NCBI RefSeq assembly: GCF_044324785.1
Contig: NZ_CP172127.1
Source: Escherichia coli
Lineage (GTDB): Bacteria > Pseudomonadota > Gammaproteobacteria > Enterobacterales > Enterobacteriaceae
DNA length: 64,000 nt
Reading direction: 5' to 3' (one strand)
Both the position numbers and the translations under genes were made by a program. Under the pieces are notes generated by a model that saw only the letters and a program-made list of their open reading frames with translations, made no database searches and was not told the origin of the DNA. Shown here in pieces: positions 2,867 to 62,521 of this stretch (the first letter of the stretch is position 1; each line of letters opens with the position of its first letter).

Positions 2867-3179
2867 GACTTATCCATCGGACGAGGGAAGAACTCCACCT
2901 CAGAGACTCAAATAATCGTTTAAATGATGTGGACGCGATCGTCAATGTCACCTGTAATGATGGGCTTTCTCATATGTACACCATAGTGTTCAGGAGACAC
3001 GGAAAGGTGCCAGGCAGCCTGCTAACGAGTGGTTTATTCACGAATTAGTACGTAAAATCGGTAACGGCTGGAAATCATTCAATACTTACACTATCGAAAG
3101 TTCCCCAGCCAACCGTGGTACGTTCTTACATACGATGTACCGCTGTTCTCTTTACGATTTATAGCTGTACTGGTGAATT

Positions 3180-3509
3180 ATGAGCAATCTGAATCCATGC
3201 ATGACGTGTGGTGCCTGTTGTGCATTTTTCCGCGTCTCTTTTTACTGGGCCGAAGCCGACGATGCTGGCGGTACCATTCCCGCCAGGCTCACTGAACAAA
3301 TATCCCCTTTTCACCGATGCATGAGCGGTACCAATCAGAAAAACCCCCGATGTATTGCCCTTGCAGGAACACCGGGCAAAAATGCCTGCTGCACGATATA
3401 TAAAAATCGATCGTCCACGTGCAGAGAATTCGCCATGTCTGGTGAGAACGGAGTCGTCAATGAGGCTTGCAATCGTGCAAGAGCTAAATACGGGCTGACA
3501 CCGTTATAA
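3180..3509 (+). CDS. ykgJ: YkgJ-family cysteine-cluster protein (109 aa)
   Basis: 109-aa ORF rich in Cys motifs ([10 protein letters not shown]...C); length and position beside yagU match ykgJ. Confidence 0.8.
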
Positions 3510-3757
3510 ATATGCAATAATTAATTGCACTGCCCCGCCAGCTATAATCGCGGGGCTTCGTTTTTCAGGGATCACAAAACCCGAAACTTCTTCCATCTGC
3601 CAGCAACAATGCCTCTTCCTTTATAGTGTTCTCCGGATCTACAGCATCCTGAAGTAGCGCGATGTACTCACTGGCTATCTGCATCAGAAAGTTAAAAACA
3701 ATGTTTTTAACCTATAAAAATGGCGCTGTATTTGCGCCATTTTTATCATTCAATGCA

Positions 3758-4372
3758 TTATCTGTTTGAGCCTAAAGGGATCTCAGGGTCTGGCTCATGA
3801 GTAATTCTGTTTCGTAAATCTCTGCGAATAATTTCAATGGACCAGAACCAGACTAAATGTCCAAAAATTTCAGAAACATTCTCATACCACGGGAGATCAA
3901 ACAGAGGTGGCGTCAGTCCCATGAGAGGGAATGAAATCATATGAACAAAAAGTTGGGCTAAAGCACCTGCCAGTAAGCCCTGCCAGAGTTTAATTTTTGG
4001 AAATACTTCAGCGACCACACAATAACCGACAGCAAACACTATCGAAAAGATAATGTGCGTAACACCAACCCAGTTAAAGACATGCCCGGCAAAGGTATAA
4101 ACAGCCGCATTGGGATCTGTCAGCCCCAGCCAGTCTCGAAGAAAAATATACGGAGGATTGAGAAAATTACGGGAGCAATCAATTTGCCCAGCAGCCCTGA
4201 TTAATGATTCCGGGCCACACGCTGCATTAAACATATCCACCGGGCTACGTGGCGGCAATGGAACTTCAGCCCCCCACTTCACAAATGCGGAAACAACGCC
4301 AGCAATCAGCCCAATGAATGCAGCAAGACCATAACGTCTGCGGTTCGGTGGAGTTTGTTCAAATATATTCAT
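3758..4372 (-). CDS. yagU: Inner-membrane protein YagU (DUF1440 family)
   Basis: 204-aa ORF with several hydrophobic segments; recognised as YagU by sequence recall and by position between ykgJ and paoA. Confidence 0.8.
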
Positions 4373-27403: not shown

Positions 27404-27658
27404 ATGGCTAGAGATGATCCGCACTTTAACTTCCGTATGCCTTTGGAAGTAAGAGAAAAATTGAAATTAAGAGCCGAGGCTAACGGAAGGTCAATGAACT
27501 CTGAGTTATTACAAATCGTTCAGGATGCACTATCAAAACCATCACCGATTACAGGATATCGCGACGAAGCTGAACGCTTGGCTGATCAGCAGGCTGAGCA
27601 GTTCAAGGCTATAGTGTTTGAGACACTTAAAAAGATTTATGAAAAGGATTTGAAATGA
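27404..27658 (+). CDS. mnt: Mnt repressor (maintenance of lysogeny)
   Basis: 84 aa, MARDDPHFNFRMPLEVREKLKLRAEANGRSMNSELLQIVQDALSKPSP...; ribbon-helix-helix N-terminus like P22 Mnt. Confidence 0.9.
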   Translation: MARDDPHFNFRMPLEVREKLKLRAEANGRSMNSELLQIVQDALSKPSPITGYRDEAERLADQQAEQFKAIVFETLKKIYEKDLK

Positions 27659-27709: not shown

Positions 27710-28766
27710 GGCTTTGTTGAATAAATCGAACTTTTGCTGAGTTGAAGGATCAGATCACGTATCTTCCCGACAACGCAGACCGTTCCGTGGCAAAGCAAAA
27801 GTTCAAAATCACCAACTGGCCCACCTACAATAAAGCCCTCATCAACCGTGGCTCCATAACTTTCTGGCTGGATGATGAAGCTATTCAGGCCTGGTATGAG
27901 TCAGCAACACCTTCTTCACGAGGCAGACCTCAGCGCTATTCTGACCTTGCCATCACTACTGTGCTGGTCATTAAACGCGTATTCAGGCTGACCCTGCGGG
28001 CTGCGCAGGGCTTTATTGATTCCATTTTTTCTCTGATGAACGTTCCGCTACGCTGCCCGGATTACAGCTGTGTCAGCAGGCGGGCAAAGTCGGTTAATGT
28101 CAGTTTCAAAACGCCCACCCGGGGTGAAATCGCACACCTGGTAATTGATTCCACCGGGCTGAAGGTCTTCGGTGAAGGCGAGTGGAAAGTCAAAAAGCAT
28201 GGCCAGGAACGCCGCCGTATCTGGCGTAAGCTGCATCTCGCCGTTGACAGTAAAACACATGAAATCATCTGCGCTGACCTGTCGCTGAACAACGTTACGG
28301 ACTCAGAGGCCTTCCCCGGGTTAATCCGGCAAACCCACCGGAAAATCAGGTCAGCCGCCGCCGATGGCGCTTACGATACCCGGCTATGTCACGATGAACT
28401 GCGGCGTAAGAAAATCAGCGCGCTTATCCCTCCCCGAAAAGGTGCGGGTTACTGGCCCGGTGAATATGCAGACCGTAACCGTGCAGTGGCTAATCAGCGA
28501 ATGACCGGGAGTAATGCGCGGTGGAAATGGACAACAGATTACAACCGTCGCTCGATAGCGGAAACGGCGATGTACCGGGTAAAACAGCTGTTCGGGGGTT
28601 CACTGACGCTGCGTGACTACGATGGTCAGGTTGCGGAGGCTATGGCCCTGGTACGAGCGCTGAACAAAATGACGAAAGCAGGTATGCCTGAAAGCGTGCG
28701 TATTGCCTGAAAACACAACCCGCTACGGGGGAGACTTACCCGAAATCTGATTTATTCAACAAAGCC
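27710..28766 (+). mobile_element. IS903-like insertion sequence (IS5 family), 1057 bp, flanked by a 9-bp target-site duplication
   Basis: Terminal inverted repeats GGCTTTGTTGAATAAATC (27710-27727) and GATTTATTCAACAAAGCC (28749-28766); direct 9-bp duplication GTGCTGAGC at 27701-27709 and 28767-28775; 1057 bp matches IS903. Confidence 0.9.
27787..28710 (+). CDS. IS903-type DDE transposase (307 aa from GTG 27787)
   Basis: The VAKQKFKITNWPTYNKALINRGSITFWLDDEAIQAWYE N-terminus matches IS903 transposase as I recall it; the ORF is also open from an upstream ATG at 27742. Confidence 0.85.
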   Translation: MAKQKFKITNWPTYNKALINRGSITFWLDDEAIQAWYESATPSSRGRPQRYSDLAITTVLVIKRVFRLTLRAAQGFIDSIFSLMNVPLRCPDYSCVSRRAKSVNVSFKTPTRGEIAHLVIDSTGLKVFGEGEWKVKKHGQERRRIWRKLHLAVDSKTHEIICADLSLNNVTDSEAFPGLIRQTHRKIRSAAADGAYDTRLCHDELRRKKISALIPPRKGAGYWPGEYADRNRAVANQRMTGSNARWKWTTDYNRRSIAETAMYRVKQLFGGSLTLRDYDGQVAEAMALVRALNKMTKAGMPESVRIA

Positions 28767-29071: not shown

Positions 29072-29461
29072 ATGAAATTGATTATAGCAATGGCTTTCCT
29101 TGTCTTCTCGTTTTCTGTCTCAGCAGAGTGCTGGGTCGTTGGAGATATGCACGGAATAAGCTATTCAGAACGAAATAATTTTCAACCGGAAGAAGATGGT
29201 TTTAGTGGAACATTCATCATTAAGACAAACGGTGAAGATGCCAGTATCACATATTCTGGGACGGATGCGGGCGGCATGGCTTACAAAGCATTGTCTAAAA
29301 ACTCCATCCTAGGAATTGGCGCGAATGGAGAAACTCAACGCGTTATAGACTCATGGGTAATACATCCTACTGGAACAGTTTTAATGTCAAAAACCATTTC
29401 CGGTTATGGAAATATGGATTCAACCAAAGCTTTTGTTGGAAAAGTAAAAAGAAAATGTTAA
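29072..29461 (+). CDS. Hypothetical secreted/periplasmic protein (129 aa)
   Basis: Signal peptide MKLIIAMAFLVFSFSVSAEC; second gene of the mnt-downstream operon; no recognisable domain. Confidence 0.6.
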   Translation: MKLIIAMAFLVFSFSVSAECWVVGDMHGISYSERNNFQPEEDGFSGTFIIKTNGEDASITYSGTDAGGMAYKALSKNSILGIGANGETQRVIDSWVIHPTGTVLMSKTISGYGNMDSTKAFVGKVKRKC

Positions 29462-30551: not shown

Positions 30552-30582
30552 GGTATCCTGCGCAAAACTAAGGAGGTTGGTG

Positions 30583-30770
30583 TGAAGAAAAAATTTGTAA
30601 ACGTTGCAAAGTGCGCAATTTTTATATTTTTTATGACCTTTTACGGATTTAGTGCCGGAGAAGGTTTCGATCGTGATGCCAATGCATTCAGTTTCTTTTG
30701 TCTGTCTATAGTGGTCATAATTGTATGGGTGGAATTAAAGCAAACATTGTTTCATGTGCTAGGGAAATAA
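30583..30770 (+). CDS. Small two-TM membrane protein (62 aa from GTG 30583)
   Basis: Strong RBS AAGGAGG 6 bp upstream of GTG; VKKKFVNVAKCAIFIFFMTFYGFSAGEGFDRDANAFSFFCLSIVVIIVWVELKQTLFHVLGK. Confidence 0.45.
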
Positions 30771-47392: not shown

Positions 47393-47468
47393 TGGTGCTG
47401 GTTAACGGACTTGAACCGCTAGCCATTCGCTTACAAGGCGACCGCTCTACCATTGGAGCTAAACCAGC
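47393..47468 (-). tRNA. Prophage-encoded tRNA (76 nt; anticodon read as UGU, Thr)
   Basis: Hand fold of GCTGGTT...AACCAGCACCA: 7-bp acceptor stem, D-arm GCTC/GAGC, T-arm AGCGG-TTCAAGT-CCGTT, CCA encoded; the anticodon stem has one mismatch. Confidence 0.55.
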
Positions 47469-47473
47469 ATGTT

Positions 47474-47548
47474 TGGCGGGACAGCGTGGACTCGAACCAC
47501 GATAAGAAGGTTAACAGCCTTCCGTAATGACCTTTATACGACTGACCC
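47474..47548 (-). tRNA. Prophage-encoded tRNA-like gene (75 nt; anticodon read as GUU, Asn), possibly degenerate
   Basis: T-arm CGTGG-TTCGAGT-CCACG and anticodon arm GAAGG-CTGTTAA-CCTTC are clean; the acceptor and D stems each have one mismatch; CCA encoded. Confidence 0.45.
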
Positions 47549-52870: not shown

Positions 52871-54247
52871 TCATACGTCAGCCCCTTGTGCATATCGTCT
52901 GCCACGCGCAGCAGGTGCATTTGATGCTGTGCAAATCTGTCTGGCTTCATCCTGGTCACATGCAACAAAGTGTCCGTTACAGAACCGCTGGTAAACCGTA
53001 CCAAGCGAGCCAAAACGGTTTTTCGTCACAATGATTTCAGCAAATGGCGCGGCGCTACTGTTCTCGTCATATACCGCTTCCCGATAGAGCATGATGATTG
53101 AGTCTGCGTCCTGCTCAATGCTTCCTGAATCACGCAAATCTGCGTTTGTCGGGCGTTTGTTTGGTCGCTTCTCAACATCGCGCGAAAGCTGACTCAGGGA
53201 GATAACAGGCGTTTTCAGGTCTTTCGCCATCGCCTTCAGGCTTCCGGAGATGTGAGCAATTGCGAGGTCGTTGCGGTCTGCTTTCGGCTTCTCAATCAGG
53301 CCAAGATAATCCGCCATGATGAGTGACAGGTTTGGATTTTCCTGTTTGTGCCGCTCTGCGATTGAGCGAATTTCTTCTACCGATAACCGCGAGGCATCGA
53401 CTACCCATACATCCAAATCTGCAAGCTGACTCATGCCGTTAGCAACACGTGCCCAGCCTTCGTCATCCATCGATGCAGGATTTCGTAGCACGCTAACCGA
53501 CATCCTCCCGGCGTTGGCAATGCTTCGCTCTGCAATCTGCAATGCGCTCATTTCCATCGAGAAAATCAACACTCCGCGCCGGACGTCAGAACCAGGAATA
53601 ACACGACTTGCAACGCCTTCGGCAATCTTCAGCGCCAGTTCGGTTTTCCCCATACCAGGACGAGCAGCGATTATCACCAGGTCTTCCGCGTTCATCCCTC
53701 CGGTGATGGCATCAAGTTCTTCGATTCCGGTCTTCAGGGTATCTGACTCTTCTCCGTTCCTCAGACGCCTGTCAAGCGTGTCAGTGTAGTCAGTGATGAT
53801 TTCACCTAACCGTACAGGTTTAACCTCGTCACGGGGCTTTCTGATGGCTGAGAGACGCTTTACAAGCTCATCCATCGCTTGACTCGATGCGTCGATGGTT
53901 CCGCTCTGAATTGGTTCACGCATTTCATCCATGATTTCCAGCACCAGACGGCGGTGATAGTTATCCGCGACCATTCCGGCATATCCCTTCAGGTTTGCGG
54001 CACTCGGGCAGTTTTTGCTGGTCATCAGGATTGACGTGAAATGCTCCTCTCCGCACGCCTCGGCAACCATCAGCGCATCGATTAGGTTTCTGTTTCTCGC
54101 CTGCTTGCGGATAACCTCGAAGGCTTTCCGGTAGAGCGGAATTGAAAACGCTTCCGGCTCCAGCGTTGCCAGAACGTCGCTGGCGGTTGGTGTTAATCCA
54201 CCAATCAGCAGGCCACCGATAACGCTCGCTTCGATATCCTGTCTCAT
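52871..54247 (-). CDS. Replicative DNA helicase (DnaB-like; P22 gene 12 analogue)
   Basis: Walker A ARPGMGKT plus DnaB-type N- and C-terminal domains; 458 aa. Confidence 0.9.
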
Positions 54248-55065
54248 GCAATCCCCCTGTCTGCAAACTTCCCTTCCCGTACTCCAGTTAACGAATCTTC
54301 CCTCAGCAGGTAATCAAAATCAGCTGTCCAGCCCGTGTCGTTGTCTCCGAAGTAAAACGGCTTGGCCTGATGCACAAACGCCCTGACATACGCTCTGAAA
54401 CCGTCCACGTTTGGCGTTTTCAGTTGCGGGATGATTTTCTTCAGGCGGCGTTTGCGTTTCTCGTTGACCGCAACAGCGTGTGGCAGTCTGTCACCGACTT
54501 CGGTGTTGTAGGCGTTCAGGAAGGATTCGTAGTCGATTCGTTCTGCCTTGCGACGTTCAGGTTTAACCTGCCCATCGCCACCCCCGTTAGGGGGTAAGGG
54601 GGTATTTGTATTTATTGTCTTTTGTATATTGTCTTTTGTGTTTAGCTGACTTGGCTTATACCCATTAGCCGACTTGGCTAATGTTTTATTAGCTGTTTTA
54701 GCTAATGTTAAGCTGTCCTGGCTAATCCACTGAGAAACAACCTTGTTCACTCCGATTTTCACGCCATCAGCAATGAGGAATTTACGCTCGATAAGCTGGC
54801 GCTTGGCAGCGCAAACATGAGTGTGATGAATACCTGTCATGGCTGCTATCTGCGTGTTTGTGAGTCGATCCATCGGCTTATTGAATCCGTATGTCTTGCG
54901 CATGATAGCGAGCATCACCTTCAACTGCCGGACGGTTAAATCAGCCATCAGCAGACTGTCGGTAATCTCGTTAGCAACGCGCATGAAACCATCTTCGGTA
55001 TCTGCCACGCGATGCTCCACGACCTCAAGTTGAGGCCTGTAATCAGCTAACTTAACGACGCCCAT
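54244..55065 (-). CDS. Replication initiation protein (lambda O / P22 gp18-like)
   Basis: 273 aa; N-terminal HTH; the gene contains an iteron-rich AT segment (see repeat feature). Confidence 0.75.
54580..54730. repeat. Putative phage origin of replication (iterons inside the O-like gene)
   Basis: CCCCCGTTAGGGGG palindrome followed by direct repeats TTGTCTTTTGT (x2), GACTTGGCT (x2) and TAGCTAATGTT (x2) in an AT-rich stretch. Confidence 0.5.
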
Positions 55066-55247: not shown

Positions 55248-55529
55248 TCAGGCCTCGAAGAATTCGCCGTTCTTCGGGGCTTTTTCTTTTGTCAGGTAAT
55301 TGGCAAGCCGCTTAGTCAGCTCAGCCATTTCATCGTCTTCGATTCCGTATTCCAGAACAGCCAGCATCATGCTTACCTGCGAGAAGAAACCATTCTTCCA
55401 TCGGCTTACCTGATATTCAGGAACCCCCATTGCTCGAGCGAATGTCTTCTGCCCCATCAGTGCCAGTTTGTTCAGCAAGGCTGACTCGATGCGAGCCGCT
55501 TTCTTGCTTTTAGTTGCAATAGTACCCAT
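55248..55529 (-). CDS. CII-like transcriptional activator
   Basis: ARIESALLNKLALMGQKTFARAMGVPEYQVSRWK...MLAVLEYGIEDDEMAEL parallels lambda CII. Confidence 0.8.
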   Translation of the reverse strand: MGTIATKSKKAARIESALLNKLALMGQKTFARAMGVPEYQVSRWKNGFFSQVSMMLAVLEYGIEDDEMAELTKRLANYLTKEKAPKNGEFFEA

Positions 55530-55605
55530 AGATAATTTCCTTAATGATTAGATAGAGTTGGCTTCGCAAAGAAACGCAAAACCATAGAGATTTGTTTCTG
55601 GTAAT

Positions 55606-55637
55606 GCCCTTTTTCAGGGCGGGGATGTGTAAGAGCG
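55606..55637 (-). promoter_or_regulatory. nutR (boxA + boxB)
   Basis: Minus-strand boxA CGCTCTTAC and boxB GCCCTGAAAAAGGGC, between cro and cII. Confidence 0.8.
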
Positions 55638-55645
55638 TTAATAAC

Positions 55646-55876
55646 TTAAGCGGCCATTAATTCAGGCCAGATGCTTTCCCAATCAACCGGATGAAGGTCT
55701 TTGCGAGTCACTTCACCATTGCTGAACTTCTCAATCAGAACACAAAGTGCTGCGCCCAATTCATGATTACGGCTAAGTGCTTTCCTCAAATAGCCGATAG
55801 AAGTTCCGCACTTGGTGGCAAATTCTCTCTGCTCTTCCAGTGAAAGGGAGTTCAGATACAAGCGGAGTTCTTCCAT
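55646..55876 (-). CDS. Cro-like repressor (HTH)
   Basis: 76 aa, divergent from cI across the operator region; HTH segment REFATKCGTSIGYLRKALS. Confidence 0.7.
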   Translation of the reverse strand: MEELRLYLNSLSLEEQREFATKCGTSIGYLRKALSRNHELGAALCVLIEKFSNGEVTRKDLHPVDWESIWPELMAA

Positions 55877-55910
55877 TTGCTATCTCCTTCCCGTTGTTGA
55901 ATAAGATGAG

Positions 55911-55965
55911 TTTACCTGTAGGTAAAAAGCAAATCAATACCCATAGGTTATTTACCGGCAGGTAA
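55911..55965. promoter_or_regulatory. Right operator region (OR) with PR/PRM
   Basis: Palindromic sites TTTACCTGTAGGTAAA (55911-55926) and TTTACCGGCAGGTAA (55951-55965), consensus TTACC-N4-GGTAA. Confidence 0.7.
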
Positions 55966-55984
55966 TCAAAGATAGAATTAAATC

Positions 55985-56671
55985 ATGGATAAATACGAAC
56001 AAAGACGACTAAGGCTGATAGAGATAAGAGACCGATTCTGTAATGGAAAGGCCTCAGAGTTGGCTCGTCGAATAGAAAGGGAACCATCATACGTTTCCAG
56101 AATGCTGTATCCGGAAGGAAAAAGCGGAAAAAAACGCATTGCTGACGATATGATGGAACTAATTGAAAAATCTTTTAATCTCCCACGCGGATGGATGGAC
56201 ATGCTTGCAGATGGTAAAGCTGGAGCTACAGACCATCTTGAGTTTGCGGGTAACGTTCGTGCGGGTTTTGTTCCGGTAATTGGTGAAGCCGTTTTGGGAG
56301 TTGATGGCTCAGTGGATATGATTGAATTCAGATCCGGTTGGTTAAGCATCTACAGCGGCGATAAAGATGCTTACGGTCTGAAGGTTAAGGGTGACAGCAT
56401 GTGGCCAAGGATTCAGTCAGGAGAATATGTTGTTATTGAACCAAATACGCCAGTACATCCAGGTGATGAAGTCTTTGTAAGGACCAAAGACGGTCACAAC
56501 ATGATAAAGATCATGAACAAAACAAGAGACGGTGATTATCAGTTTAGTAGCATAAACAGTGATCACCGCCCAATCACTCTTCCTGTTGAAGAAGTTGATA
56601 AAATGCATTTTGTTTCAGCTATTGTGAAACACACCAGGTACGTAGACCAGGACGATCTGCCAAAAGTTTGA
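55985..56671 (+). CDS. CI-type prophage repressor (HTH + LexA-like S24 peptidase domain)
   Basis: N-terminal HTH and C-terminal autocleavage domain with GDSMWP (Ser nucleophile); 228 aa. Confidence 0.85.
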   Translation: MDKYEQRRLRLIEIRDRFCNGKASELARRIEREPSYVSRMLYPEGKSGKKRIADDMMELIEKSFNLPRGWMDMLADGKAGATDHLEFAGNVRAGFVPVIGEAVLGVDGSVDMIEFRSGWLSIYSGDKDAYGLKVKGDSMWPRIQSGEYVVIEPNTPVHPGDEVFVRTKDGHNMIKIMNKTRDGDYQFSSINSDHRPITLPVEEVDKMHFVSAIVKHTRYVDQDDLPKV

Positions 56672-56685
56672 GGATAAAGCAGCAA

Positions 56686-56982
56686 GTGTTTATACCCGGC
56701 ATAGTAGTCGCTGTTGTAATCATCTGCTTCATATGGGCAAAGTTATCTCCTGTAAGCTCTAAGCATACAGCTGAACTCATGAAGAAGAAGCATCTTATAC
56801 ATGAGGCAGAATCGATAATTAAAAAGTTCAAAGGCATGTCATACGACGACATGTCATCAGAGCAGATTGCTATGTATAAATGCGCCATTGAGCGTCTTGA
56901 CTACTTAAACGGACTCAAACCCAAACACACCCCAGTAGAATCAAAATTGCCGCAATGGCCAAGCAATCCAAATAGCTTCTGA
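56686..56982 (+). CDS. Small single-pass membrane protein downstream of cI (rex-locus position), about 98 aa
   Basis: GTG at 56686 with GAGG upstream (or TTG 56668); TM helix VFIPGIVVAVVIICFIWA then a soluble domain; followed by an intrinsic terminator. Confidence 0.5.
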   Translation: MFIPGIVVAVVIICFIWAKLSPVSSKHTAELMKKKHLIHEAESIIKKFKGMSYDDMSSEQIAMYKCAIERLDYLNGLKPKHTPVESKLPQWPSNPNSF

Positions 56983-56993
56983 CATCTCCTTTC

Positions 56994-57016
56994 AGCCCGC
57001 AAAGCGGGCTTTTTTA
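56994..57016 (+). terminator. Intrinsic terminator ending the cI operon
   Basis: AGCCCGC-AAA-GCGGGCT hairpin followed by TTTTTT. Confidence 0.8.
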
Positions 57017-57035
57017 TATCAATCCAAAAAATTAA

Positions 57036-57116
57036 TTACCTGAAAATTCAAGCAGGTAAACTCTTACATCAATTTTATTTACCTGCAGGTATAGACAACT
57101 GTTTTACCTGTAGGTA
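57036..57116. promoter_or_regulatory. Left operator region (OL) with PL
   Basis: Sites TTACCTG-N10-CAGGTAA (57036-57059), TTACCTGCAGGTA (57079-57091) and TTACCTGTAGGTA (57104-57116), the same consensus as OR. Confidence 0.7.
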
Positions 57117-57160
57117 TATTTTAGGCCATCAGCAGGACGCACTGACCACCATGAAGGTGA

Positions 57161-57191
57161 TGCTCTTAAAAATTAAGCCCTGAAGAAGGGC
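57161..57191 (+). promoter_or_regulatory. nutL (boxA + boxB)
   Basis: TGCTCTTAAAAATTAAGCCCTGAAGAAGGGC; boxB hairpin GCCCTGAAGAAGGGC as in lambda nutL. Confidence 0.85.
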
Positions 57192-57348
57192 AGCATTCAA
57201 AGCAGAAGGCTTTGGTGTGTGTGATACGAAACGAAGCATTGGCCGGAAGTGCGAATCCGGATTAGCTGCCAATGTGCCATTGCGTGGTGTTTTCGTTCAG
57301 GACTACGACTCCCACACACAACCAAAGCTAACTGACAGGAGAATCCAG

Positions 57349-58246
<898 letters not shown>

Positions 58247-58369
58247 TTAAAAGACAGGCATACTAATAAACACTGCACTGTGTATTCATTCCAACGAGTG
58301 AATACACGGAGCAATGTCGCTCGTAACTAAACAGGAGCCGACTTGTTCTGATTATTGGAAATCTTCTTT

Positions 58370-58396
58370 GCCCTCCAATGTGAGGGCAGTTTTTTT
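58370..58396 (+). terminator. Intrinsic terminator (tL-like) within the early-left operon
   Basis: GCCCTC-CAATGT-GAGGGC hairpin followed by AGTTTTTTT. Confidence 0.7.
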
Positions 58397-58409
58397 GACG
58401 GAGTAAACG

Positions 58410-58658
58410 ATGATAAAAACTGATTACCCTGCAGAGCTTAAACAAAAAGTAATAACAGCAATTAAATGCTCTTTTATCTCATGTCGTACAGATGAAGAAC
58501 GATATGTCGTTGAGTGTACAATTGTCGAGTTTCTCACAGCGATGGAATTTACCGCTGCAGAATCAATAGATGTATTAAAGCAATCAGACGGAAATGATAT
58601 TGAAACGGATGATGTTATTGACCGACTAATAAAATCATTCGAAGAAGAAATAGAGTAG
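58410..58658 (+). CDS. Hypothetical acidic early protein, 82 aa
   Basis: RBS GGAG upstream of ATG; unknown function. Confidence 0.45.
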   Translation: MIKTDYPAELKQKVITAIKCSFISCRTDEERYVVECTIVEFLTAMEFTAAESIDVLKQSDGNDIETDDVIDRLIKSFEEEIE

Positions 58659-61046: not shown

Positions 61047-61394
61047 GTGGAAGAAGAAATCTTCACTCGTGAAGAGGCAGCGTCGTATCTGAAGGTAGAC
61101 AAAGGCACTATCACGCAGTGGATACGAAGTGGACGACTTCAGGCCGCAAAGATAAATCCAGATAAACCTAAAAGCCCATATCGCATTTGCAAGTCAGACT
61201 GCATTGCGGCGCTTAAGTCTGTGAGACACAATAGCGCGGTGAATGCGGTTGATGTGCAGGAGGTTAAAGCATGTCAATCAAACTACGCGGTGGCACGTGG
61301 CACTGTGATTTCGTCGCGCCAGATGGATCAAGAGTTAGACGCTCTCTTGAAACATCGGACAAAAGGCAAGCGCAAGAACTTCACGATCGTCTAA
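61047..61394 (+). CDS. xis: Excisionase (Xis-like HTH)
   Basis: 115 aa; N-terminal REEAASYLKVDKGTITQWIRSGRL HTH; immediately upstream of and overlapping int. Confidence 0.65.
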   Translation: MEEEIFTREEAASYLKVDKGTITQWIRSGRLQAAKINPDKPKSPYRICKSDCIAALKSVRHNSAVNAVDVQEVKACQSNYAVARGTVISSRQMDQELDALLKHRTKGKRKNFTIV

Positions 61395-62431
61395 AAGCAG
61401 AAGCGTGGAGAGTAAAAAATCTCGGGGAATCACCGAAAAAGCTATTCAAGGAAGCCTGCATACGGTGGCTGCGTGAGAAATCGGATAAGAAGTCCATTGA
61501 TGATGACAAGAGCATTATATCGTTCTGGATGTTGCACTTCAGAGAAACCATTCTCTCAGACATAACAACAGAAAAAATAATGGAGGCGGTAGACGGGATG
61601 GAAAACCGCCGCCATCGCCTGAACTGGGAAATGAGCCGGGACAGGTGTTTGCGGCTTGGCAAGCCAGTGCCGGAGTATAAACCAAAGCTGGCAAGCAAAG
61701 GAACGAAGACGCGGCATCTGGCAATACTTCGCGCTATTCTCAATATGGCTGTTGAATGGGGATGGCTTGACAGGGCGCCCAAAATATCAACACCACGCGT
61801 TAAGAATGGACGAATCAGATGGCTTACAGAGGAGGAATCGAAGCGCCTGTTTGCAGAAATTGCTCCTCATTTCTTCCCTGTGGTCATGTTTGCAATCACG
61901 ACAGGCCTTCGCCGTTCCAACGTTACAGACCTTGAGTGGTCACAGGTCGATCTGGATAAGAAAATGGCATGGATGCACCCTGATGAAACAAAAGCTGGCA
62001 ATGCGATCGGAGTTCCTCTTAACGAAACCGCATGCCAGATATTAAGAAAACAGCAGGGTCTCCATAAGAGATGGGTGTTTGTCCACACCAAACCTGCCTA
62101 CCGAAGCGACGGAACAAAAACAGCAGCGGTAAGGAAGATGAGAACCGACAGCAACAAGGCATGGAAGGGAGCGTTAAAGCGGGCAGGCATTAGCAACTTC
62201 CGCTTCCATGACCTGAGGCATACCTGGGCAAGCTGGCTGGTTCAGTCCGGTGTCTCTCTTCTTGCACTTAAAGAGATGGGAGGATGGGAAACTCTCGAAA
62301 TGGTTCAAAGATACGCCCACCTTTCAGCCGGGCATCTCACCGAGCACGCGAGCAAAATCGATGCGATTATAAGTCGCAATGGCACAAATACGGCACAAGA
62401 GGAGAACGTGGTTTACTTAAATGCGAGGTAA
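61271..62431 (+). CDS. int: Tyrosine integrase (P22-like)
   Basis: 386 aa; catalytic-domain residues (...RFHDLRHTWASWLVQSGVSLLALKEMGGWETLEMVQRYAHL) and N-terminus like P22 Int; its stop lies inside the att repeat next to thrW. Confidence 0.9.
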   Translation: MSIKLRGGTWHCDFVAPDGSRVRRSLETSDKRQAQELHDRLKAEAWRVKNLGESPKKLFKEACIRWLREKSDKKSIDDDKSIISFWMLHFRETILSDITTEKIMEAVDGMENRRHRLNWEMSRDRCLRLGKPVPEYKPKLASKGTKTRHLAILRAILNMAVEWGWLDRAPKISTPRVKNGRIRWLTEEESKRLFAEIAPHFFPVVMFAITTGLRRSNVTDLEWSQVDLDKKMAWMHPDETKAGNAIGVPLNETACQILRKQQGLHKRWVFVHTKPAYRSDGTKTAAVRKMRTDSNKAWKGALKRAGISNFRFHDLRHTWASWLVQSGVSLLALKEMGGWETLEMVQRYAHLSAGHLTEHASKIDAIISRNGTNTAQEENVVYLNAR

Positions 62432-62491
62432 CTTATTGATTTAAATGGTGCCGATAATAGGAGTCGAACCTACGACCTTCGCATTACGAAT
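62428..62491. repeat. Prophage attachment-site repeat (attR): 64 bp overlapping the thrW 3' end
   Basis: Identical to 22652-22715. Confidence 0.85.
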
Positions 62492-62521
62492 GCGCTGCTC
62501 TACCAACTGAGCTATATCGGC
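62446..62521 (-). tRNA. thrW: tRNA-Thr (anticodon CGU)
   Basis: Reverse complement reads GCCGATATAGCTCAGTTGGTAGAGCAGCGCATTCGTAATGCGAAGGTCGTAGGTTCGACTCCTATTATCGGCACCA; canonical cloverleaf; sits beside proA. Confidence 0.9.

Follow-up and report, generated by a model that had tools for sequence, protein, structure and literature searches.

Introduction

RexB, the membrane protein of the lambda rexAB pair, has about 144 residues and four transmembrane (TM) helices. The interval between cI and N is a documented defence hotspot, which holds rexAB as well as bstA (PMC8585504). A second well-described system is SieA of P22, which blocks DNA injection by P22-like phages and from which escape mutations map to gp16 and gp20. 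The sieA homologues that have been examined in detail all lie between genes 16 and 9; SieA proteins of 162-164 aa display three predicted TM helices and the motif FxRYPxEAxxFNK, types A-C range from about 160 to 200 aa with three or four TM helices, and the most conserved motif is predicted to be cytoplasmic (PMC10883804). Since sieA is present in only 22 of the 66 sequenced P22-like phages (PMC10883804), room is left for analogues. A further class, represented by the lactococcal Tuc2009 Sie, by Ltp of the S. thermophilus phage TP-J34 and by HK97 gp15, blocks DNA entry too, and some of its members are encoded beside the repressor (PMC10883804).

The subject of this analysis is a small gene located immediately downstream of cI in a lambdoid prophage of Escherichia coli. 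The prophage lies in a stretch of 64,000 nucleotides of contig NZ_CP172127.1 (assembly GCF_044324785.1), referred to as the window, and its immunity and early region occupies 52.8-60.4 kb. The gene appears to be an uncharacterised member of the repressor-linked prophage accessory genes and a candidate for a new exclusion family. As an arrangement, this is unremarkable among lambdoid phages; it is the occupancy of two genomic slots by the family, together with the predicted cytoplasmic orientation of the protein, that makes it a worthwhile lead.

Organization of the immunity region

On the minus strand, the early region comprises genes for a DnaB-like helicase (52871-54247), O (54244-55065), cII (55248-55529) and cro (55646-55876). 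Between cro and cI, pattern matching reveals two OR-side operator palindromes, TACCTGTAGGTA at 55913-55924 and TACCGGCAGGTA at 55953-55964. A plus-strand promoter at 55951-55978 (TTTACC-16-TAGAAT, matching the consensus at 9 of 12 positions) is PRM-like, a role given to it by its position. Its -10 hexamer ends 6 nt before the ATG of cI, which suggests that the mRNA of cI, and of the small gene with it, is leaderless as for lambda PRM. The repressor gene (55985-56671, plus strand) encodes 228 aa with an S24 autopeptidase C-terminal domain and belongs to the repressor family phrog_4; it is named cI in phage mEp043, to which it shows 99.5% nucleotide identity. The small gene (56686-56982, plus strand; 98 aa, PHROG 10450) begins with GTG 14 nt past the cI stop codon with no terminator in between, and its GAGGA Shine-Dalgarno sequence, as read at 56670-56674 on the same strand, overlaps that stop codon.

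The pair is closed by an intrinsic terminator at 56994-57016 on the plus strand. The stem-loop (56994-57010) contains a 7-bp stem with six G-C pairs and a 3-nt loop and is followed by a run of six T (57011-57016). With a free energy of -12.6 kcal/mol and z = -3.0 against shuffled sequences, it deserves the qualification of strong that the first-pass annotation had given it, and the 34 nt from the stop codon of the small gene through the T-run are invariant in 28 of 28 copies. PL and N come after the terminator. Two OL operators (57080-57091 and 57105-57116, by pattern matching within 57080-57120) are interleaved with a PL-like promoter (57092-57120, plus strand, TAGACA-17-TATATT), where mEp043 carries the annotation of a putative PL, and the lambda-like antiterminator gene N (57340-57672, plus strand, phrog_271) is the first gene of the PL operon.

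All four operators are perfect or near-perfect copies of the 12-bp palindrome TACCTGYAGGTA. The operator pattern has 16 matches against 4.7 expected, and the sites with zero or one mismatch on either strand are exactly these four, at both ends of the unit formed by cI and the small gene. Because the palindromes bracket this unit, the small gene belongs to the immunity region and stands where rexAB is found in lambda. The rex-locus position claimed for it at first sight is confirmed in this way: between the OR and OL operators, downstream of cI and upstream of PL and N. From this layout, it can be inferred that the small gene is co-transcribed with cI from PRM, and also from PRE during establishment, and that its product is made in every lysogen. 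A search of 55400-58500 against Rfam returned no match above threshold.

Another ORF of the region deserves mention. Antisense to N and directly after it, positions 57665-58168 (minus strand) encode a 167-aa protein of phrog_1244 (function not annotated) with a C-terminal CxxC...CxxC zinc-ribbon-like motif, and a promoter-like site is found at 58164-58137. This ORF occupies the position of P22 sieB and is a candidate prophage-expressed accessory gene; it received no Pfam or PADLOC assignment, and direct comparison with P22 SieB revealed no similarity.

Start codon and coding status of the small gene

The small ORF had been described initially as one of about 98-104 aa at 56668, with the cI stop codon overlapping or abutting it. 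Four observations place the functional start at GTG 56686. The PHROG 10450 profile aligns only from residue 7 of the 104-aa version (residues 7-104 to profile positions 1-98 of 98); every homologue opens with M-[YFW]-I-[PS] at the position of this GTG; the codon is ATG instead of GTG in 22 of 28 near-identical copies; and the GAGGA Shine-Dalgarno sequence, 11 nt upstream, is kept with either start. The functional gene is consequently the 98-aa version, which abuts cI with a gap of 14 nt and without overlap. The alternative TTG start at 56668, the one that would give 104 aa and overlap the cI stop, is ruled out by the same profile, homologue starts, ATG copies and Shine-Dalgarno position.

The reading frame is conserved as a protein-coding sequence. 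In eight homologues, down to 27-40% identity, only the sense frame is open throughout. An antisense ORF at 56619-56888 (89 aa) was also considered and discarded, its frame being closed in the homologues. All 28 gap-free copies are intact, with no disrupted copy, and their polymorphisms amount to nine synonymous and 10 nonsynonymous changes outside the start codon, against a neutral expectation of about 35 nonsynonymous ones. Close variants differ by six synonymous versus two to four nonsynonymous changes, which corresponds to an omega of about 0.08-0.16; among close variants overall, omega is about 0.1-0.3, dS being saturated at deep divergence. The small gene is a genuine conserved protein-coding gene under purifying selection.

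Automatic annotation has largely passed over it: of the 51 complete RefSeq genomes of E. coli that carry the 98-aa gene, PGAP annotates it in two and omits it from the other 49. An example of an intact copy among these carriers is found at 3015-3311 of locus L013. For the allele of the type found in phage N7, a hypothetical protein is annotated in every genome row among the matches listed (25 of 60). The sRNA svsR, which in prophage NC-SV is reported to map to the 3' end of a cI gene (PMC12803456), was considered and set aside; strain NC101 is not among the 51 carriers, and nothing links that sRNA to this locus.

A small family confined to prophages of Enterobacterales

The protein gives a full-length match to the profile of PHROG 10450 (function not annotated) with E = 1.4e-54. 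An exhaustive HMM search of 1.84 billion representative sequences produced 15 matches at E <= 0.001, which correspond to about 13 true clusters at 50% identity; complete members are 97-114 aa long and share the same architecture. Sequence searches of Pfam, NCBIfam, PADLOC and the PDB returned no match for the small protein, and no PHROG annotated as exclusion was matched. The initial impression that it resembles neither RexB nor other known families is thus upheld as far as the annotated families of Pfam, NCBIfam, PADLOC and PHROG reach, and the homology and structure searches that had been recommended at that stage lead only to its own family (PHROG 10450 and the Foldseek matches described below). 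Literature on mEp043, on the protein accessions and on other mEp phages was searched as well, and neither functional data for the family nor any publication in which the protein is mentioned were found.

The family is tiny and confined to Enterobacterales prophages, the hosts named by the sources being E. coli, E. fergusonii, Salmonella, Morganella, Providencia and Cronobacter. In a set of 50,697 phage records, members occur only in mEp043, N7 and HZ41. Over the unit of cI, small gene and terminator, the window shares 99.5% identity with coliphage mEp043, whose annotation lists the ORF as gp49, a hypothetical protein. Phage mEp043 is a lambda/HK022-like siphovirus, and the prophage of the window is a P22-like podovirus, with a tailspike gene, ant-arc-mnt, the ejection genes gp16-gp20-gp7 and a P22-type head module. 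The presence of the same unit in both indicates that the immunity module is mosaic between virion types. Across complete E. coli genomes, this unit is present in 51 of 5426, with the small gene and its cI together in 51 of 51. Conservation of the ORF and of the whole cI-ORF-terminator unit in other prophages, raised as a check when the gene was first noted, is hence borne out, both by the PHROG 10450 homologues and by the 28 of 28 intact copies.

The prophage of the window is integrated at tRNA-Thr. The tRNA-Thr (cgt) gene in question lies at 62446-62521, beside the integrase gene (61271-62431). Two adjacent tRNA genes, for Thr (tgt) and Asn (gtt), are found at 47393-47548 (minus strand) inside the late-gene part of the prophage.

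Two genomic slots

Members whose context can be read occupy one of two slots, with no third. The first, in immC, is that of the window (also loci L004, L005 and L040-L067): in 28 of 28 IMG/VR loci, a leftward cro is followed by a rightward cI and then the small gene, and N follows wherever the downstream sequence suffices and N is recognisable. The deeper relatives in this slot (L004, L005, L066 and L067) keep the arrangement of the window. The second slot, in immI, is found in phage N7, and in loci L008, L009-L011 and L016-L039, which include Morganella prophages, usually downstream of mnt and at or near gp7-gp20-gp16. In 24 of 24 IMG/VR loci of this kind, the member is the last gene on the mnt side and converges with the ejection-protein gene 16, the two coding regions being only about 15 nt apart. 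This is the exact position of sieA in P22. The N7-type allele is present in 57 of the 5426 E. coli genomes.

What lies upstream of the immI members varies: mnt with two small genes, mnt alone, a c2-like gene, or only the tailspike gene. In L017 and L026, no repressor gene is detectable upstream as far back as the tailspike gene. In L030, the gene that directly precedes the member (3326-3916, plus strand) is c2/cI-like and shares 25% identity with P22 C2; here a repressor-like gene accompanies the family for a second time, independently of the first. Two Morganella prophages carry a gene with a Rap1a domain (PF18602) between mnt and the family member (4641-4988 in L009, 971-1318 in L010); as this domain marks immunity proteins against T6SS effectors, the Morganella mnt operon seems to collect varied protective cargo.

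One 38-kb P22-like contig (IMGVR_UViG_2563366933_000009) contains a member in each slot, L035 by gene 16 in immI and L045 after cI in immC, and these two types are only about 29-37% identical. Coexistence of two paralogs in one prophage is expected if alleles differ in specificity. A neighbour-joining tree groups the immC copies into one clade, next to immI copies of greater diversity, a topology that fits one capture of the gene into the slot downstream of cI.

The sieA slot of the window prophage itself is occupied by a different gene. At 30582-30770 (plus strand), convergent with gene 16 (30788-32698, minus strand), a gene with a strong TAAGGAGGT Shine-Dalgarno sequence and a GTG start encodes a 62-aa protein with two predicted TM helices that matches phrog_21338 (function not annotated) over its full length. 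The translated sequence upstream of this gene, LRKTKEVGV, matches the N-terminal extension LLKTKEVGV of the family member P0005, so one upstream cassette seems to drive different small membrane genes across phages. An IS5-family transposase gene (27742-28710, plus strand; NCBIfam NF033579, 357 bits) lies directly after mnt (27404-27658) and separates it from small secreted and membrane ORFs, which it may uncouple from Pmnt. Of these ORFs, the one at 29072-29461 shows a signal-peptide-like N-terminus and matches phrog_2651, and the one at 29700-29882 matches phrog_37095.

Divergence in both slots is fast. Where the cI proteins of L004, L005, L066 and L067 are 84-85% identical, the small proteins are 33-43% identical, and dN is about 0.55-0.62 for the small gene versus about 0.10 for cI; the small gene thus diverges about six times faster than its repressor. 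Likewise, immI alleles are 65-66% identical where the adjoining gp16 is 85-87% identical, so that the small gene diverges faster than the already variable gp16.

Predicted topology and fold of the protein

The hydrophobic segment of the protein begins at residue 1 (MFIPGIVVAVVIICFIWA, about residues 1-18, encoded at 56686-56739 on the plus strand) and reaches a Kyte-Doolittle mean of 2.8 over 17 residues; it is preceded by no charged residue and followed by K/R residues. It is the only hydrophobic helix, as had been anticipated in describing a single N-terminal TM helix. The residues preceding the segment carry no net positive charge in the 19 of 19 members scored, and no positive charge in 18 of them, and the 15 residues that follow it contain one to four K or R in all 19. 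According to the positive-inside rule, this distribution predicts that the N-terminus is out and the C-terminus in. The protein is accordingly inferred, from sequence features, to be anchored in the inner membrane with its conserved domain in the cytoplasm and no more than 0-3 residues exposed to the periplasm. The possibilities of a cleaved signal peptide and of a lipoprotein were discarded, since a positively charged n-region is lacking and the cysteine of the TM segment is not conserved.

Within the protein, the TM sequence is where the members vary most, and it is the C-terminal 75 residues that are chiefly conserved, with the family motifs LIxEA, SWxxM, YxCAxERL, K(K/P)NHxP and WP and with a nearly invariant Cys that has no conserved partner Cys. 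The AlphaFold2 model of the window protein (mean pLDDT 79.8) shows a long helix (5-47) that continues beyond the membrane, then a second one (58-76) and a tail in extended conformation; the domain of about 75 aa is predicted to be a helical hairpin. Foldseek searches of BFVD, the PDB and AFDB50 with this model matched proteins of the family itself, from E. coli, Salmonella Hadar and Morganella, and gave no fold match outside it. The independent AFDB models of the Salmonella and Morganella members adopt the same fold, with TM-scores of 0.76-0.89.

Proposed function and alternative explanations

The model that we tentatively favour, and that may well turn out to be wrong, is that of an inner-membrane exclusion protein expressed in lysogens, which would block DNA entry from the cytoplasmic face as a functional analogue of SieA. 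The gene would be a prophage accessory gene, or moron, transcribed together with cI in lysogens. Its product would be held in the inner membrane by the hydrophobic N-terminus, and the helical hairpin of about 75 aa would face the cytoplasm; the protein would protect the lysogen against superinfecting phages at this face of the membrane during DNA entry. It could prevent the DNA-delivery conduit from being completed or used, or could block a host component of the inner membrane on which the conduit depends. The TM segment would serve as an anchor only, and the fast-evolving cytoplasmic domain would determine target specificity. With a cytoplasmic domain and at most three periplasmic residues, contact with the periplasmic part of the conduit is not expected, so any entry block would be indirect or cytoplasmic.

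Exclusion is more plausible than it would be from the position of the window gene alone because the only other place of the family is the sieA slot. An anti-phage role is proposed on several grounds taken together: the two slots are those of exclusion and defence genes, divergence is fast, paralogs coexist in one prophage, and the gene behaves as a self-contained module that travels with varying neighbours. Other considerations weigh against exclusion. Moron slots also hold genes unrelated to phage defence, which makes the argument from position circumstantial, and fast divergence could reflect weak constraint instead of an arms race. In sequence, the protein resembles neither SieA nor RexB nor BstA, and it matches no PADLOC model. 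Moreover, the cI-ORF unit is found in the siphovirus mEp043 as well as in podoviruses, and therefore shows no link to one virion type. A bolder version of the exclusion model, in which the family would form a previously unrecognised class of single-pass, cytoplasm-facing exclusion proteins of the inner membrane that replace SieA in some of the two-thirds of P22-like phages devoid of sieA and that were captured once into the rex slot of a lambdoid immunity module, is considered doubtful.

The main rival is abortive infection with a Rex-like outcome, in which the domain would sense a phage product and the protein would oligomerise and collapse the membrane potential or kill the cell otherwise. 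The slot of the window gene is shared with the abortive infection systems rexAB and bstA (PMC8585504), the domain is predicted to lie in the cytoplasm, where a sensor is expected, and membrane anchoring is predicted as well; single-gene, membrane-anchored abortive infection proteins of prophages do exist (PMC10127798). A regulated pore, on the other hand, is not expected to have its TM segment as its least conserved part and to display no conserved motif of polar or small residues in it. In addition, no partner gene accompanies the small gene, no PADLOC model matches it, and the immI paralogs stand in for sieA, an entry blocker, and not for an abortive infection gene. For these reasons this explanation is regarded as unlikely, and roles in lysogenic conversion or in the control of lysogeny as less likely still.

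A lysogenic-conversion factor would modulate host transport, stress response, envelope or virulence to the benefit of the lysogen. Such genes are held by moron slots, as the Rap1a-like T6SS immunity gene in the mnt operon of Morganella illustrates, and the carrier strains are for the most part clinical or animal isolates. This role is rendered rather improbable by the restriction of the family to two slots that, in lambdoid and P22-like phages, are classic sites of exclusion genes; moreover, its very fast divergence and the coexistence of two paralogs are easier to reconcile with a target that varies than with a conserved one of the host.

A role in the choice between lysis and lysogeny, or in prophage induction, would account for the strict linkage to one cI lineage across deep divergence; working together with cI, the protein could, for instance, be tethered to the membrane and modulate FtsH/HflKC-type proteolysis or the stability of the repressor. 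Such a regulator would be transcribed with cI from PRE and PRM, and a small helical cytoplasmic domain at the membrane would be located where FtsH acts, a connection with FtsH that is itself conjectural. Most of the diversity of the family, however, is found beside gene 16 in immI, including L017 and L026 with no detectable upstream repressor gene, and two copies can reside in one prophage. Furthermore, the immC members form one clade derived, as it seems, from one capture, and their linkage to cI is explained by the 14-nt spacing. The probability of this role is considered low.

Finally, a non-functional origin, as a chance ORF or as a 3' untranslated or sRNA-bearing tail of the cI transcript, could be invoked given the omission of the gene by PGAP in 49 of 51 genomes and the GTG start of the window copy, but it is effectively refuted already by the homologue search, the alignment, the polymorphism pattern and the frame comparison, that is, by amino-acid conservation down to 27% identity with shared motifs and architecture, purifying selection and an ATG start in 22 of 28 copies, and no Rfam family reaches threshold at the locus.

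Implications

Should the protein exclude phages, it would add a new, very small family to the few exclusion mechanisms of Gram-negative bacteria that act at the injection stage, and its action from the cytoplasmic face, if true, would inform the last step of DNA delivery by short-tailed phages. Should it have no phage phenotype, it would be one more prophage moron. A family member is present in about 2% of the complete E. coli genomes (51 plus 57 of 5426), and the cultured carriers mEp043, N7 and HZ41 make the gene open to immediate experiment.

Comparison with known systems

In genomic position, the gene corresponds to rexAB and bstA, and its paralogs correspond to sieA; in sequence and architecture, it departs from all three. 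Like lambda rexAB, it is an immunity-region gene that comes after cI and precedes a terminator, OL/PL and N (PMC8585504), and its expression logic, as deduced from the layout, would match too. RexAB is a two-gene system that combines a polytopic membrane protein with a cytoplasmic sensor, whereas the window contains a single gene of 98 aa with one TM helix. No similarity to RexA or RexB was detected in PADLOC, and no annotated family was matched.

BstA is much larger than the protein of the window and soluble, whereas the latter is small and predicted to be membrane-anchored. The two share a slot, since bstA, an abortive infection gene of the Salmonella prophage BTP1, also follows cI in a P22-like prophage and has its own terminator (PMC8585504); presumably, both share the promoter of the repressor. 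In its mode of action BstA is distinct, as it works at sites of phage DNA replication and is restrained by a DNA-based self-immunity element, aba (PMC8585504). Neither PADLOC nor Pfam matched the window protein to the BstA family.

The likeness to P22 SieA concerns the family more than the copy of the window: the immI paralogs occupy the sieA slot (24 of 24 loci), and the window copy itself is in immC, after cI. Both are small inner-membrane proteins, by prediction in the case of the present one, whose most conserved part is predicted to be cytoplasmic. They differ in size, number of TM helices and motifs, the protein of the window having 98 aa, one TM helix and motifs of its own. BLASTP against P22 SieA (type A) produced no alignment, and the motif FxRYPxEAxxFNK is absent from the family alignment.

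In Tuc2009 Sie, Ltp and HK97 gp15, the functional domain is exposed outside the cytoplasmic membrane, whereas that of the window protein is predicted to be cytoplasmic, and there is no sequence relation between them. What they have in common is that they are small, membrane-associated and expressed from the prophage (PMC10883804), features that the window protein would share.

The gene corresponds to the repressor-linked morons as a class. It is encoded on the strand of the repressor with no intervening terminator, is closed by a terminator of its own and is variably present among related phages. Related repressors of the 933W type carry other genes at the position downstream of cI.
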